Source: a virus
Lineage: Duplodnaviria; Heunggongvirae; Uroviricota; Caudoviricetes
Length of the DNA stretch: 5,495 nucleotides
Direction: 5' to 3' (one strand)
Virus record (IMG/VR): IMGVR_UViG_2657245015_000016
Coordinates: 1-5,495 of that record
How positions within the stretch are numbered: position 1 is the first letter of the stretch; each line of letters begins with the position of its first letter. The translations under genes were made by a program, and so were the position numbers. The notes beneath the pieces are model-generated. The model was not told the DNA's origin, searched no databases, and saw nothing but the letters and a program-made list of their open reading frames with translations. Shown here one piece after another: positions 553 through 5,495 of this stretch.

Positions 553-1173
553 GTGTCAGACAAACTCTCCGGGATAACTCATCCCGATGACAATCACGAC
601 CGCCCCTGGTGGGGGCTTCCCTGCACAGTGAGGCCCTGTTTTGGCGCTCGTCTGGTGCAAGAGGGTAACCGCCTGCATTACCTTGCCGACCGCGCCGGTA
701 TCAGAGGCCGCTTCAGCGACGCAGATGCATACCATCTGGACCAGGCCTTTCCGCTGCTGATGAAACAACTGGAACTCATGCTCACCAGCGGTGAACTGAA
801 TCCCCGATATCAGCATACCGTCACGCTGTATGCAAAAGGGCTGACCTGCGAAGCCGACACCCTCGGCAAATGTGGCGGAAAGGGTGAGGTTTCCACCGCC
901 TGTAAGGATTGCCGTGGGCGTGGTGTCGCCATTCATCGTGAAGAGTCGGTAAAACGTGGTATGCCTGTTATCAGAGACTGCCAGCGTTGTGGTGGTCGTG
1001 GCTGTGAAAGACTACCATCAACGGAGGCATTTAATGCCATATGCAAAGTGACGAGTGCTATCACGCTTGATACGTGGAAAAAATCAGTGAAACGCTTTTA
1101 CGATACGTTGGTGGTTCGGTTTGACATTGAAGAGGCATGGGCGGAGCGGCAGTTAAAGAGGGTAACGCGATAG
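553..1173 (+). CDS. Chimeric ORF: N-terminal ~105 aa of a CbeA/YeeU/YfjZ-family antitoxin fused in frame to the C-terminal ~100 aa of a lambda-Q-family late antiterminator; probably a junction fusion or pseudogene
   Basis: GTG start at 553 with AGAGGA 8 nt upstream. Residues 1-~105 (MSDKLSGITHPDDNHDRPWWGLPCTVRPCFGARLVQEGNRLHYLADRAGIRG...LTSGELNPRYQHTVTLYAKGLTCEADTLG) carry the hallmark GARLVQEGNRLHYLADRA motif of CbeA/YeeU antitoxins. Residues ~110-206 (ACKDCRGRGVAI...IRDCQRCGGRG...LDTWKKSVKRFYDTLVVRFDIEEAWAERQLKRVTR) align with the lambda Q C-terminus (CRDCHGTGRAV...ECGRCKGVGY...QPTWSRTVKPLYDALVVQCHKEESIADNILNAVTR), including the CxxC...CxxC zinc site. A lambda-like pR' lies immediately downstream. 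Confidence 0.8.
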   Translation: MSDKLSGITHPDDNHDRPWWGLPCTVRPCFGARLVQEGNRLHYLADRAGIRGRFSDADAYHLDQAFPLLMKQLELMLTSGELNPRYQHTVTLYAKGLTCEADTLGKCGGKGEVSTACKDCRGRGVAIHREESVKRGMPVIRDCQRCGGRGCERLPSTEAFNAICKVTSAITLDTWKKSVKRFYDTLVVRFDIEEAWAERQLKRVTR

Positions 1174-1178
1174 TGTTG

Positions 1179-1218
1179 TTGATTTTTCCCGAATCTGTGG
1201 TAAATTTGCTCTAACGAT
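1179..1218 (+). promoter_or_regulatory. pR'-like late promoter with a sigma70-dependent promoter-proximal pause element (the expected Q-utilisation region)
   Basis: TTGATT (1179-1184), a 16-nt spacer, then TAAATT (1201-1206), followed by TGCTCTAACGATGGG. This closely resembles lambda pR' (GGTAAATTTGACTCAACGATGGG) and sits directly after the Q-like stop codon, as in lambdoid phages. Confidence 0.55.
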
Positions 1219-1255
1219 GGGCGTTTTATGCCTGACGTTAGAAGATTTTTTACAC

Positions 1256-1278
1256 CCCGCCGCCTGGCGGGTTTTTTT
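1256..1278 (+). terminator. tR'-like intrinsic terminator ending a short pR' transcript (6S-RNA-like)
   Basis: Stem CCCGCC (1256-1261) pairs with GGCGGG (1266-1271) around loop GCCT, followed by seven T (1272-1278). It lies about 65 nt downstream of the predicted pR' start. Confidence 0.7.
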
Positions 1279-1400
1279 ATGACTGAAATCGCGTCAGTAC
1301 AGTAAACGCGCTGGTGGCGGTGAATACCTGTCTTTCAGCTTGCTGGCTTTTTCGACAAGAGTTATTGGTGTGTCACGTTAACCGGAAAAGGGAAAAAGAC

Positions 1401-1598
1401 ATGCTAAAACAGCAGGATATGACAGAAACCGCCAGAGTAGTGTTTAATGAATTAAGCGTTACCGAACCGGCGACAGTCGGGGAGATTGCACAGAATACTT
1501 ACCTTTCACGCGAACGCTGCCAGTTAATACTGACCCAGCTGGTTATGGCGGGTCTGGCAGACTATCAGTTCGGTTGTTACAGACGCCTTCCGCAGTGA
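1401..1598 (+). CDS. Small (66 aa) winged-helix/DeoR-type HTH protein, hypothetical
   Basis: ATG at 1401 is preceded by an AAGGGAAAAAGAC purine-rich stretch. The segment TVGEIAQNTYLSRERCQLILTQLVMAGL has the pattern of a DeoR-like helix-turn-helix. The stop codon falls in the loop of a terminator hairpin. The longer track ORF starting at 1314 is not preferred because it begins in the tR'-proximal region without a ribosome-binding site. Confidence 0.4.
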   Translation: MLKQQDMTETARVVFNELSVTEPATVGEIAQNTYLSRERCQLILTQLVMAGLADYQFGCYRRLPQ

Positions 1599-1608
1599 AG
1601 GCTTTTTT
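1585..1608 (+). terminator. Intrinsic terminator after the small HTH ORF
   Basis: GCCTTC (1585-1590) pairs with GAAGGC (1597-1602) around loop CGCAGT, followed by TTTTTT (1603-1608). Confidence 0.5.
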
Positions 1609-1748
1609 ATTTGTGGTAAATGGGCGGCTGGTGGGTGTTAGGGGCACCCACCAGCCATCTGCTCATGCGTTGGGTTCACAAGCAAACCTCAGGCCCACTG
1701 CTTTGCGCAAAAGCAGAATGAGCCTATCAGAGACAGGCTTAATGATCC

Positions 1749-2798
1749 ATGCTTAATACTGTAAAAATATCCAGTTGTGAGTTAATCAACGCCGACTGCC
1801 TGGAATTTATCCGGTCGTTACCCGAAAATTCTGTTGACCTGATAGTCACGGACCCGCCGTACTTTAAAGTGAAGCCTGAGGGCTGGGATAACCAGTGGAA
1901 GGGCGACGATGATTACCTGAAGTGGCTGGACCAGTGTCTGGCGCAGTTCTGGCGGGTGCTGAAACCTGCCGGAAGTCTTTACCTGTTCTGTGGTCATCGC
2001 CTGGCATCTGATATCGAAATCATGATGCGTGAACGCTTCAGTGTGCTGAACCATATTATCTGGGCGAAGCCGTCCGGACGCTGGAACGGATGCAACAAGG
2101 AAAGCCTGCGGGCGTATTTCCCCGCCACAGAGCGCATTCTGTTCGCGGAACATTATCAGGGGCCGTATCGTCCGAAAGATGCCGGGTATGCGGCGAAGGG
2201 CAGTGCACTGAAACAGCATGTGATGGCCCCGCTGATTTCTTACTTTCGTGATGCGCGCGCGGCCCTGGGGATAACGGCAAAACAGATTGCAGATGCCACA
2301 GGAAAGAAAAACATGGTGTCGCACTGGTTTGGTACCAGTCAGTGGCAGTTACCGAACGAGGGTGATTACAACAAATTGCAGGCGTTGTTTGCGCGTGTTG
2401 CGGCAGAAAAACATCAGCGCGGGGAACTGGAAAAGCCACACCACCAGCTGGTCAGCACATACAGTGAGCTGAACCGGCAGTATATGGAACTGCTGAGTGA
2501 ATATAAAAATTTGCGGAGGTATTTCGGTGTGACGGTGCAGGTGCCGTACACCGATGTGTGGACGTATAAACCGGTGCAGTACTATCCAGGGAAACATCCG
2601 TGCGAAAAACCGGCAGAAATGTTGCAGCAGATAATCAGCGCAAGTAGTCGTCCTGGTGAGCTGGTTGCGGATTTTTTCATGGGGTCGGGTTCAACGGTAA
2701 AAGCGGCGATGGCACTGGGTCGTCGTGCGATTGGTGTTGAGCTGGAGACCGGACGTTTTGAGCAGACAGTCAGGGAAGTTCAGGATTTAATCGTTTGA
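1749..2798 (+). CDS. Orphan DNA methyltransferase, amino-methyltransferase beta class (N6-adenine or N4-cytosine); motif IV DPPY precedes motif I FxGxG
   Basis: 349-aa ORF. LIVTDPPY lies near the N-terminus (catalytic motif IV) and DFFMGSGST near the C-terminus (AdoMet-binding motif I), with a presumed target-recognition region between them. No restriction endonuclease ORF is adjacent. In-frame TGA at 1743-1745 fixes the start at ATG 1749. Confidence 0.9.
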   Translation: MLNTVKISSCELINADCLEFIRSLPENSVDLIVTDPPYFKVKPEGWDNQWKGDDDYLKWLDQCLAQFWRVLKPAGSLYLFCGHRLASDIEIMMRERFSVLNHIIWAKPSGRWNGCNKESLRAYFPATERILFAEHYQGPYRPKDAGYAAKGSALKQHVMAPLISYFRDARAALGITAKQIADATGKKNMVSHWFGTSQWQLPNEGDYNKLQALFARVAAEKHQRGELEKPHHQLVSTYSELNRQYMELLSEYKNLRRYFGVTVQVPYTDVWTYKPVQYYPGKHPCEKPAEMLQQIISASSRPGELVADFFMGSGSTVKAAMALGRRAIGVELETGRFEQTVREVQDLIV

Positions 2799-2809
2799 AA
2801 CGGATGATA

Positions 2810-2838
2810 TTGAAGAATTAATTACGCGTCGTTATTAT
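2810..2838 (+). promoter_or_regulatory. Candidate sigma70 promoter of the tRNA cluster
   Basis: TTGAAG (2810-2815), a 17-nt spacer, then TATTAT (2833-2838). The predicted start is about 8-10 nt before the first tRNA 5' end at 2848. Confidence 0.5.
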
Positions 2839-2847
2839 GCGGCTCCC

Positions 2848-2923
2848 GGCCCTTTAGCTCAGTGGTGAGAGCGAGCGACTCATAATCGCCAGGTCGCTGG
2901 TTCAAATCCAGCAAGGGCCACCA
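2848..2923 (+). tRNA. ileZ: tRNA-Ile2 (anticodon CAU, lysidine-type, reads AUA); ileX/ileZ-like
   Basis: Hand-folded cloverleaf: acceptor GGCCCTT/AAGGGCC, D-stem GCTC/GAGC, anticodon loop CTCATAA, T-arm GCTGG-TTCAAAT-CCAGC, encoded CCA at 2921-2923. It is near-identical in pattern to E. coli ileX from memory. The CAU anticodon alone cannot exclude tRNA-Met. Confidence 0.85.
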
Positions 2924-2930
2924 TCACATA

Positions 2931-3007
2931 CCGCCATTAGCTCATCGGGATAGAGCGCCAGCCTTCGAAGCTGGCTGCGCGGGGTTCAAGTCCCCGATGG
3001 CGGTCCA
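2931..3007 (+). tRNA. argN: tRNA-Arg (anticodon UCG as read from the fold)
   Basis: Acceptor CCGCCAT/ATGGCGG (7 bp), D-stem GCTC/GAGC, anticodon stem CCAGC/GCTGG with loop CTTCGAA (U33, anticodon TCG, A37), T-arm CGGGG-TTCAAGT-CCCCG, encoded CCA at 3005-3007. It starts 8 nt after the preceding tRNA. Confidence 0.85.
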
Positions 3008-3020
3008 TTATCTGCATCAT

Positions 3021-3097
3021 GCGTTGTTAGCTCAGCCGGACAGAGCAATTGCCTTCTAAGCAATCGGTCACTGGTTCGAATCCAGTACAACGCGCCA
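3021..3097 (+). tRNA. argO: tRNA-Arg (anticodon UCU, reads AGA/AGG rare codons)
   Basis: Acceptor GCGTTGT/ACAACGC, D-stem GCTC/GAGC, anticodon stem ATTGC/GCAAT with loop CTTCTAA (anticodon TCT), T-arm ACTGG-TTCGAAT-CCAGT, discriminator G, CCA at 3095-3097. Confidence 0.88.
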
Positions 3098-3111
3098 CAC
3101 TTATTTTCCCT

Positions 3112-3138
3112 GGCTCGCTTTTGCGGGCCTTTTTTTTT
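3112..3138 (+). terminator. Intrinsic terminator of the tRNA operon
   Basis: GGCTCGC (3112-3118) pairs with GCGGGCC (3123-3129), with one G-U pair, around loop TTTT, followed by nine T (3130-3138). Confidence 0.75.
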
Positions 3139-3144
3139 AAATGT

Positions 3145-3359
3145 CTCACAATTCAGACGGTTGACTGTTGTCTGGTTTGCGGGGAGTTTGTTAAAAGAAA
3201 CTGGCATGGTGAATCCCCCTGTGCGGAGGGGCAATCAGCGAGTAGGTATATGGGATAATCGCGGATTCAGGTGCTGGTACTGAATTCACCGGGAGGCACC
3301 CGGCACCATGCAATGGCACATAGCGCCACTCTCCAGCCCCTCTCCGGAGGGGCTTTTCT
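3145..3359 (+). ncRNA. Candidate structured small RNA, copy A of a tandem paralog pair occupying the stx slot
   Basis: Starts at the conserved CTCACAATTCAG block just after the tRNA terminator. Perfectly conserved blocks are shared with copy B: TTTGTTAAAA, CATGGTGAATCCCCCTG, GCGGAGGGGC, CACCGGGAGGCACCCGGCACCATG. It ends in a terminator (7-bp stem GCCCCTC/GAGGGGC at 3336-3353, then TTTTCT). There is no conserved reading frame between copies. No convincing sigma70 promoter was found, so the 5' end is uncertain. Confidence 0.35.
3336..3359 (+). terminator. Intrinsic terminator closing repeat copy A
   Basis: GCCCCTC (3336-3342), loop TCCG, GAGGGGC (3347-3353), then TTTTCT. Confidence 0.6.
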
Positions 3360-3548
3360 GTGCCGGATACATCACAGTTTCTGGAACCTTAGGTACTACA
3401 GTATCAGTCAGGGTGCTATATTTTCAGATGTGATGAAAGCCTGTCAGCAGGCAGGGCGTATCGGAAATGACCCAGTAGAGAAAACGTTGACTCAGATACC
3501 GGTGCTGAGTTACCGGGAAACCGGCATCACATGACCGCTATCCTTCCA

Positions 3549-3575
3549 GGCCCATCCGCTCCGGTGGGCCTTTTT
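3549..3575 (+). terminator. Intrinsic terminator preceding repeat copy B
   Basis: GGCCCATC (3549-3556) pairs with CGGTGGGCC (3562-3570), including one G-U pair, around a 6-nt loop, followed by TTTTT (3571-3575). Confidence 0.6.
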
Positions 3576-3612
3576 ACTGCAGAAAACAGGTTCCCCGTTA
3601 AATGCTATGTTG

Positions 3613-3846
3613 CTCACAATTCAGTAAGTTGACAGTTGCCTGTCAGACTGGGCATTTGTTAAAAAAATTTCGCATGGTGAATCCCCCTGAGCGGAGGGGC
3701 GACTGGTGACGGTATAATCTCTGATTATCAAAACGAGAATGACGCGGGTTTAGTGGCACCGGGCTGAACTCACCGGGAGGCACCCGGCACCATGTGCATG
3801 ATGATACAGATACGCGGCTTTAGCCCCTCTCCGGAGGGGTTTTCTT
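3613..3846 (+). ncRNA. Candidate structured small RNA, copy B of the tandem paralog pair
   Basis: Same conserved block order as copy A, beginning CTCACAATTCAG at 3613 and ending with terminator CCCCTC/GAGGGG (3824-3839) plus TTTTCTT. The internal 5-bp hairpin CCCCT-N6-AGGGG and the CCGGG-AGGCA-CCCGG hairpin are preserved in both copies. Confidence 0.35.
3824..3846 (+). terminator. Intrinsic terminator closing repeat copy B
   Basis: CCCCTC (3824-3829), loop TCCG, GAGGGG (3834-3839), then TTTTCTT (3840-3846). Confidence 0.6.
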
Positions 3847-3852
3847 GTGGGC

Positions 3853-3880
3853 AAAAAAAGCCCGCGCTGGGAGACGCGGG
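3853..3880 (-). terminator. Candidate minus-strand (or bidirectional) intrinsic terminator
   Basis: On the plus strand, AAAAAAA is followed by GCCCGCG-CTGGGAGA-CGCGGGC (perfect 7-bp stem). Read on the minus strand this is a hairpin followed by a T-run. Confidence 0.35.
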
Positions 3881-3949
3881 CGGCAAGGAATAAACAATAA
3901 AACGTGAAGTAATATTTCAGCTGGCGAATAATACCCCATAGTAATCACT

Positions 3950-3972
3950 CTGCGCAACTGCGCGGTCTTTTT
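3950..3972 (+). terminator. Weak candidate intrinsic terminator upstream of the esterase gene
   Basis: CTGCGC (3950-3955) pairs with GCGCGG (3960-3965) around loop AACT, followed by TCTTTTT. Confidence 0.3.
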
Positions 3973-4074
3973 CGAATTGCGGGCTGTCGTCTCTCTTCTG
4001 CCATTGTCCTGTAACTTCCGGACTTCAGCCCGCTCCTTATTTTACTCACAATATTATCCCGGCCGGGAGGATTC

Positions 4075-5322
4075 ATGGCATTTAAACACTATGACGTGGT
4101 CAGGGCGGTATCGCCGTCAGACCTTGCGAAACGACTGACACAAAAACTGAAGGAGGGCTGGCAGCCGTTTGGTAGTCCGGTGGCCATAACCCCTTATACC
4201 CTGATGCAGGCGATTGCAGCAGAAGGTGATGTGGTGGTCAGTGGTGCAACTGAGCCGGATTGGTACTACGTCATCGTACTGGCCGGGCAGTCCAATGCCA
4301 TGGCTTACGGTGAAGGGCTTCCGCTGCCGGATTCATACGATGCGCCCCATCCGCGCATTAAGCAACTGGCCCGTCGTAACACAGTGACTCCCGGTGGTGA
4401 AGTATGCGTATTTAACGACATCATTCCTGCTGACCATTGTCTGCATGATGTTCAGGATATGAGTACGATTAACCATCCCCGGGCTGACCTGAGCAAAGGG
4501 CAGTACGGCTGTGTCGGACAGGGCTTACATATTGCCAAAAAACTGCTTCCGTATATCCCTAATAACGCGGGGATCCTGCTGGTACCATGCTGTCGTGGTG
4601 GTTCGGCATTCACCCAGGGCACGGAGGGGACATTCAGCGAGTCCACGGGGGCCAGTCAGGATTCGGCTCGCTGGGGAGTGGGTAAGCCGTTATATCAGGA
4701 TCTGCTTTTCCGCACGAAGGCAGCATTGCAGAAAAACCCGAAAAACGTTTTGCTGGCGATATGCTGGATGCAGGGGGAATTCGATATGACGAATGCCAGT
4801 TACGCCCAGCAGCCAGCAGCATTTCTTGCAATGGTACAGCAGTTCCGTGCTGACCTTGCCGGGCTGGCGGCGCAGTGTCACGGTGGAAGTCCGGCATCAG
4901 TCCCCTGGATTTGTGGCGACACGACATACGCGTGGAAACAAGAACACGGTACGCAATATGAAGTGGTATATGGTGCATATAAAGGTAAAGAATCCCAGCA
5001 GATTTATTTTGTTCCCTTTATGACCGATGGTAGCGGAGTTAATACACCGACAAACAACCCGTCAGAAGATCCTGATATTGCCGGGTCTGGTTATTACGGT
5101 TCGGCATCCCGAACGAACAAAAACTGGGTATCATCAAATCGCCCGACGCATTTCAGCTCATGGGCGCGTCGTGGCATTATTCCCGATCGTATGGCAACTG
5201 CTATTCTGAACGTAGCCGGTCGCACCTTAGCCTTCATTAGTGGTAAGGCACCGGAAATCAAACCCTCGCCCGGCGGCGACACTCCATCGGGGCCGTCTGA
5301 TGGCCAATCAGAAAGGCGATGA
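4075..5322 (+). CDS. nanS-p: NanS-p-like prophage sialate O-acetylesterase (N-terminal DUF1737-like region plus SGNH/SASA esterase domain with a GQSN motif); possibly C-terminally truncated
   Basis: 415-aa ORF with a strong GGGAGGA ribosome-binding site 4 nt before ATG 4075. The N-terminus MAFKHYDVVRAVSPSDLAKRLTQKLKEGWQPFGSPVAITPY matches my recollection of the DUF1737 start of the gene found downstream of stxAB in 933W-like phages. VIVLAGQSNAMAYGEG carries the GQSN catalytic-serine motif of NanS-type 9-O-acetyl esterases. Its position downstream of the ileZ-argN-argO tRNAs matches lambdoid late-region synteny. Confidence 0.75.
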   Translation: MAFKHYDVVRAVSPSDLAKRLTQKLKEGWQPFGSPVAITPYTLMQAIAAEGDVVVSGATEPDWYYVIVLAGQSNAMAYGEGLPLPDSYDAPHPRIKQLARRNTVTPGGEVCVFNDIIPADHCLHDVQDMSTINHPRADLSKGQYGCVGQGLHIAKKLLPYIPNNAGILLVPCCRGGSAFTQGTEGTFSESTGASQDSARWGVGKPLYQDLLFRTKAALQKNPKNVLLAICWMQGEFDMTNASYAQQPAAFLAMVQQFRADLAGLAAQCHGGSPASVPWICGDTTYAWKQEHGTQYEVVYGAYKGKESQQIYFVPFMTDGSGVNTPTNNPSEDPDIAGSGYYGSASRTNKNWVSSNRPTHFSSWARRGIIPDRMATAILNVAGRTLAFISGKAPEIKPSPGGDTPSGPSDGQSERR

Positions 5323-5385
5323 CACCCACGCCCTGGGCCAGCCAATACGCGGTCATGATAAATCCTTATCAGGTATGGAAAAGCA

Positions 5386-5418
5386 AACGGCGCTTCACAT
5401 TATGAAACGCCGTTTTTT
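5386..5418. terminator. Hairpin terminator, probably bidirectional, between convergent genes
   Basis: AACGGCG (5386-5392) pairs with CGCCGTT (5408-5414), with an inner TTCA/TGAA helix. It is flanked by an A-rich stretch upstream and TTTTTT downstream (5413-5418). Confidence 0.45.
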
Positions 5419-5495
5419 ATTAACAACTCATTTCGACTTTATAGCGTTACGCCGCTTTTGAAGATCGCCAGTTCGCGGAAGTCGTTACGCTCGTT

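Follow-up and report, generated by a model that had tools for sequence, protein, structure and literature searches.

The nanS-p-type esterase gene at the right end of the window (the whole 5,495-nt stretch of viral DNA that was analysed) looks cut short because the contig jumps, between positions 5303 and 5304, from the middle of this prophage gene into 192 nt of the ygjV-uxaA locus. We consider this junction to be most probably a chimeric contig end, generated in silico or during library construction, and neither a prophage boundary nor the end of a new short enzyme. As we infer from the comparisons below, the join is most likely not in the chromosome.

The open reading frame (ORF) extends from 4075 to 5322 on the plus strand and encodes 415 aa with the C-terminal end PSPGGDTPSGPSDGQSERR. 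Using Pfam models, a DUF1737 domain (PF08410) was identified at aa 3-50 (E = 4e-15) and a SASA domain (PF03629) at aa 66-262. The esterase domain (aa 59-379) aligned over its full length with chain residues 16-332 of the NanS structure 3PT5 (E = 1e-122). Predicted catalytic residues (nucleophile and base) were assigned from the literature (PMC9487903). The ORF keeps the motifs GQSN (aa 71-74) and QGE (aa 233-235) as well as His359, and Ser73 of the GQSN motif, QGE 233-235 and His359 are invariant across the protein cluster. Work by Rangarajan and co-workers from 2011 reportedly provides a further basis for the assignment of these predicted residues. With a real junction, esterase activity would probably be preserved in the 415-aa product, as in the stand-alone NanS. 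The DUF1737 domain has been reported as a capsid-decoration domain in phage phi24B (preprint 10.64898/2026.04.10.717836).

In a megablast search of 5,426 complete E. coli genomes, positions 4075-5303 of the window were 100% identical to nt 1-1229 of 1857-nt genes that code for 618 aa and are annotated as "DUF6645 domain-containing protein" or "SASA family carbohydrate esterase". This part of the window (plus strand) encodes DUF1737, the SGNH/SASA esterase domain in full and the greater part of the interdomain linker. The 618-aa allele is built from DUF1737 (aa 3-50), the esterase domain (aa 59-379) and a C-terminal DUF6645 domain (aa 422-614), the last of which matches the crystallised 6YP6, labelled as the "NanS-p" C-terminal domain. 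The C-terminal domain of NanS-p is a lectin-like jelly-roll and a proposed carbohydrate-binding module (PMC10462455, PMC8065619). This DUF6645/6YP6 domain, and only this domain, is missing from the 415-aa ORF, which lacks it because of the junction at 5303/5304 and not as a feature of the allele. An earlier note, made from the letters of the window, had expected relatives of about 600 aa or more with a C-terminal carbohydrate-binding region and had regarded the ORF as truncated with respect to its family. Both statements hold, given the identical 618-aa allele, the match of its DUF6645 domain to 6YP6 and the loss of the C-terminal domain from an ORF that keeps its esterase domain. The low-complexity tail described in the same note (PSPGGDTPSGPSDG) is present, but it is the native interdomain linker, and only the residues QSERR and the stop codon are foreign. 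In the complete genomes with the 618-aa gene the lysis genes (class II holin, lysozyme, Rz-type) come next; in the window no holin, endolysin or Rz gene was found, in agreement with the earlier remark that the S-R-Rz genes were missing.

The switch point was placed by base-by-base comparison with both intact parents, and the BLAST matches end at 5303 and begin at 5304. At this point the nanS-p sequence GTCTGATGG is followed by CCAATCAG of antisense ygjV. The intact nanS-p parent reads TGACAC after GTCTGATGG, the native gene continuing from TCTGATGG into TGACACATCC, and the intact ygjV parent in window orientation reads TGTGATA ahead of CCAATCAG; zero bases are common to the two parents at the junction, which enters the antisense of ygjV codon 18. 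The ORF therefore comprises 409 native codons, Gly410 with a foreign third base, the five codons for QSERR and a TGA stop, the foreign end spanning 5304-5322 on the plus strand.

Positions 5304-5495 were 100% identical (megablast) to the 5' end of ygjV, the intergenic region and the 3' end of uxaA, a core locus whose corresponding stretch was found in 5420 of the 5426 complete genomes. The 5' end of ygjV lies at 5304-5356 on the minus strand (ATG at 5356-5354, 17 codons plus 2 nt), and its reading frame enters antisense nanS-p and stops there, resulting in a 32-aa product (MTAYWLAQGVGVIAFLIG encoded by ygjV, followed by HQTAPMECRRRARV). The uxaA-ygjV intergenic hairpin (5385-5415) is 100% identical to the native intergenic region and starts 62 nt past the stop codon of the ORF. 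Its folding energy was -14.2 kcal/mol on the plus strand (z = -4.6) and -20.1 kcal/mol on the minus strand (z = -5.2), and on neither strand did any of 200 shuffles fold as well. The hairpin is terminator-like after uxaA on the minus strand, and a T-run also follows it on the plus strand. The 3' end of uxaA (altronate dehydratase) occupies 5439-5495 on the minus strand (18 codons plus stop) and reaches the scaffold terminus; the frame from 5495 to the TAA at 5441-5439 reads NERNDFRELAIFKSGVTL. The foreign piece amounts to these 192 nt only, after which the scaffold terminates, and the native single-copy uxaA extends past 5495.

The 415-aa ORF, the hairpin and the minus-strand frame are thus all located where the earlier note had placed them, and something unrelated to a phage late operon does lie downstream of the ORF, namely ygjV-uxaA. 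The terminator that the note had seen about 60 nt after the stop codon is the native uxaA-ygjV hairpin, and the tail of a convergent gene is the 3' end of uxaA. The conclusion it had drawn, a deleted right boundary of a defective prophage, was not supported by the comparison, as the break lies in mid-gene and leads into the interior of ygjV with no shared base. An attR site or deleted prophage end was likewise not supported: both parents are broken within a coding sequence, that of nanS-p and that of ygjV, and they share no core there. No prophage genes were present beside ygjV-uxaA among the matches listed, and the literature held nothing relevant on ygjV as a phage integration site. Given the mid-gene break and the unsupported joins, a biological deletion of the right part of the prophage is therefore possible and not the best reading.

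The position of the junction within the gene coincides closely with a point at which assemblies of nanS-p tend to break. In a survey based on one partial entry (408 aa), at least 15 contigs of other, independent assemblies end at gene nt 1223-1226 (with the terminal sequence GGGGCCGTCTGA), some of them being 96-187 kb long. This is the point at which nanS-p paralogues diverge (TGATGG versus TGAAGA), and the junction, after nt 1229, is located 3 nt past it. A random break within the gene this near the recurrent break would be a coincidence of about 0.5%. The 90% protein cluster likewise contains many "partial" entries of 387-436 aa at contig ends.

The window corresponds to the entire public draft scaffold CDRU01000182.1 (assembly GCA_000946335.1; 5,495 nt), from which it differs solely at positions 868-870, where the window has AAA and the record NNN. 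This scaffold gap joins a partial yeeU/cbeA gene to a partial Q antiterminator gene. To its left, positions 1-867 are 100% identical to a CP4-like island with radC/JAB, DUF987 and yeeU/cbeA antitoxin genes; to its right, the sequence begins in the middle of the Q gene. A 206-aa ORF (553-1173), in which Pfam identified the N-terminal part of CbeA/YeeU fused in frame to the C-terminal part of Q, spans the gap and is therefore a product of the scaffold join and not a real gene. Look-ups with the 206-aa product yielded no entry.

A second draft contig, CCBX01000315.1 (assembly GCA_000946315.1), shares the sequence of the window without a difference from about 1844 to 5495. The junction at 5303/5304 and the terminal base are the same in both assembly accessions, and the flanks are 100% identical. 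At its other end (positions 1-236) this contig consists of 74 nt of sohB, 160 nt of sucB/odhB and a filler G, and then enters the middle of the methyltransferase gene. The sohB and sucB/odhB pieces are each 100% identical to a single-copy core gene, and 1 nt is common to both at their join. At the point corresponding to the sucB-methyltransferase join, the window carries the intact methyltransferase gene without interruption. An exact look-up of the methyltransferase allele for wider context returned short contigs only. The 7-mer CTGATGG is located to the left of two junctions, at 5297-5303 of the window and at 228-234 of CCBX01000315.1, and TGAT(R) stands immediately before the break in all four parents of these two junctions. 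The shared 7-mer may reflect chance, template switching or a pipeline effect. Restriction sites at the joins (TGG/CCA for MscI, BccI and HphI) were considered by eye and rejected, the parents being without such sites; Nextera, TruSeq, 454 and Ion adapter remnants, inspected in the same way, gave no match at the joins.

Neither the junction at 5303/5304 nor the yeeU-Q join nor the joins of the sibling contig were found in the 5,426 complete E. coli genomes. A 30-mer spanning 5303/5304 had no exact match in GTDB representative genomes and none in JGI metagenome contigs. By exact-product look-up, the 415-aa product and a junction-specific 53-aa ORF were on record only for the two draft accessions.

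Upstream of the junction, positions 871-5303 are colinear with lambdoid prophages of complete genomes at about 98% identity. By this colinearity, the 3' part of the Q antiterminator gene was assigned to 871-1173 and a DNA methyltransferase gene to 1749-2798 (both plus strand). Between them lies a 65-aa ORF (1401-1598, plus strand). When read from a GTG start (1314-1598) the same small ORF encodes 94 aa and has a weak, sub-threshold match to a TrmB-type helix-turn-helix (E = 0.0065); in one homologous prophage a TrmB family regulator is annotated at this position. Three tRNA genes follow at 2848-3097 (plus strand), which ARAGORN assigned to tRNA-Met(CAT), tRNA-Arg(TCG) and tRNA-Arg(TCT); RefSeq calls the first of these tRNA-Ile in homologous prophages (ileZ-argN-argO type). 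The STnc100 sRNA (Rfam RF02076) is present in two full-length copies on the plus strand, at 3175-3365 and 3643-3852 (136 and 161 bits versus a gathering score of 47). The pair occupies the interval from the tRNA cluster to nanS-p, which in Stx phages is the place of stx. No stx genes follow the tRNAs here, which makes this a non-Stx lambdoid late region. Terminator-like hairpins are present in the approximately 250 nt upstream of nanS-p at 3822-3841 (plus strand), 3950-3965 (plus strand) and 3881-3860 (minus strand), the first of which overlaps the 3' end of the second STnc100 copy. The upstream part of the late-operon setting of nanS-p (Q and tRNAs) is present, and in the scaffold partial ygjV and uxaA stand in place of the downstream lysis genes.

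For a chimeric contig end the course of events would be as follows. The source strain would carry a non-Stx lambdoid prophage with Q, the methyltransferase gene, tRNA genes of the ileZ-argN-argO type and nanS-p. Its nanS-p gene would be complete (618 aa), with lysis genes behind it, by analogy with the genomes that share the 5' 1229 nt. Short-read assembly would have run out of unique sequence in the interdomain linker, at the point of paralogue divergence, and scaffolding, gap filling or a chimeric molecule in the library would have added 192 nt of the unlinked core locus ygjV-uxaA to the contig end. Translation across the join would then yield five spurious codons and a stop, and the hairpin and the tail of uxaA would mimic a terminator and a convergent gene.

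Several observations favour this probable reading over the others. What was found at 5303/5304 is a join at a recurrent assembly break that finished genomes do not support, which is the mark of a chimeric contig, and a join made at a contig end lets the coincidence with the break point arise as a matter of course. That the record came out of scaffolding and gap filling is evident from the NNN at 868-870. Four joins without finished-genome support within 9.4 kb of two small contigs are ordinary for a poor assembly and extraordinary for a chromosome. Against a chimeric contig end speaks the recurrence of the join, since a random chimeric read should not be found in two accessions unless these shared reads, DNA or a deterministic pipeline error. 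The join is moreover seamless and without Ns, which implies reads or k-mers across it, and real duplicated inserts would also give short, sharp-edged pieces of single-copy genes in an assembly graph. A natural short NanS-p subfamily, in which about 415 aa would be the normal length and the low-complexity stretch a genuine C-terminal tail, can be excluded. The chromosomal NanS (326 aa) does demonstrate that the esterase domain is able to stand alone, but the last five codons and the stop of the present ORF are antisense ygjV, the identical allele is 618 aa long elsewhere, and the cluster relatives of 387-436 aa are all marked as partial at contig ends.

A real rearrangement, whether simple or a mosaic of several fragments, is on the whole unlikely. 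In its simple form, a deletion, inversion or translocation without homology would have fused the middle of nanS-p to ygjV codon 18, an event we hold to be improbable. This would have removed or displaced the remainder of the prophage, including the part encoding the C-terminal domain and the lysis genes, leaving a 415-aa DUF1737-esterase without its carbohydrate-binding module, a transcript ending at the uxaA-ygjV hairpin and an inactivated ygjV. Such an event would agree with the junction and contig end common to two accessions with 100% identical flanks, with the seamless join without Ns, and with the occurrence of other nanS-p remnants in complete genomes, e.g., a 227-nt 5' remnant in UTI89. 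It is at odds with a break within 3 nt of the recurrent assembly break (the approximately 0.5% coincidence), with a contig that ends 192 nt further on inside a single-copy gene, with the lack of a prophage adjoining ygjV among the matches listed, and with a junction that occurs in no other public assembly searched. E. coli is, to our knowledge, without classical non-homologous end joining, which also counts against a simple rearrangement. With regard to gene decay in general, two-piece nanS-p remnants (20% of the gene) were seen in finished genomes of many human isolates; decay of the gene is common, but not with the present junction. A complex mosaic, which we regard as rather improbable, would consist of partial sohB, partial sucB, 3.46 kb of prophage and partial ygjV-uxaA in this order, besides the native copies. 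It would have formed in vivo by serial template switching (of the MMBIR/FoSTeS kind), by homology-independent end joining or by repair with captured fragments, from pieces of at least 74 nt (sohB), 160 nt (sucB) and 192 nt (ygjV-uxaA), and both assemblies would have broken at the duplicates. As a side effect, the clone would produce a NanS-p esterase devoid of its carbohydrate-binding module. The same prophage segment is indeed flanked by sharp-edged pieces of single-copy genes in two assemblies. Close to the joins there are short, imperfect homologies: sucB and the methyltransferase gene have CCTGAT in common, nanS-p and ygjV have TGAT, and sohB and sucB have CTGCGTGAT, shifted by 14 nt in register. 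The 7-mer CTGATGG is common to two junctions. However, these homologies do not lie exactly at the joins and were noticed post hoc, and chance alone would be expected to place a 4-nt match close to a junction. A mosaic also gives no account of the coincidence with the paralogue divergence, and the NNN join to yeeU reveals that the scaffold came from a pipeline producing joins without support in any complete genome. We know of no multi-fragment mosaic of this kind described in natural E. coli.

The value of the case is mainly cautionary, in that a plausible arrangement of truncated enzyme, terminator and convergent gene can come from a chimeric scaffold end. Neither the 415-aa "NanS-p" nor the 206-aa "CbeA-Q fusion" should be entered as a protein in annotations unless sequencing reads confirm it. 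Should the junction prove to be real, it would offer a natural way of testing the contribution of the lectin-like domain to NanS-p function, and an example of homology-independent rearrangement in E. coli.

In comparison with known systems, the ORF resembles the NanS-p proteins of lambdoid and Stx phages (p42/z1466 of 933W; vb_24B_21/gp84 of phi24B), which are sialate O-acetylesterases carried by prophages and with which it shares DUF1737 and the SGNH/SASA domain. In these phages the gene is located in the late region downstream of Q and of tRNA genes of the ileZ-argN-argO type, as in the window, and the late-region slot of nanS-p is where Stx phages carry stx (PMC10462455). The window differs from them in that its ORF is without the DUF6645 jelly-roll, no lysis cassette comes after it and no stx is located upstream. 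The whole esterase domain aligns with the chromosomal NanS (YjhS, 3PT5), and the 415-aa product, if real, would likewise be without a carbohydrate-binding module. The chromosomal NanS, in contrast, has no DUF1737 and sits in the nanCMS operon and not in a prophage. NanS-p, its three-domain build and its lambdoid late-operon setting have already been described, and there is no new biology in the window in this respect. The presence of the same join in two accessions is unusual and unlike random chimeras. As in chimeric draft contigs, the join lies at a paralogue boundary, the foreign piece is short and terminal, and a residual run of Ns remains in the record.
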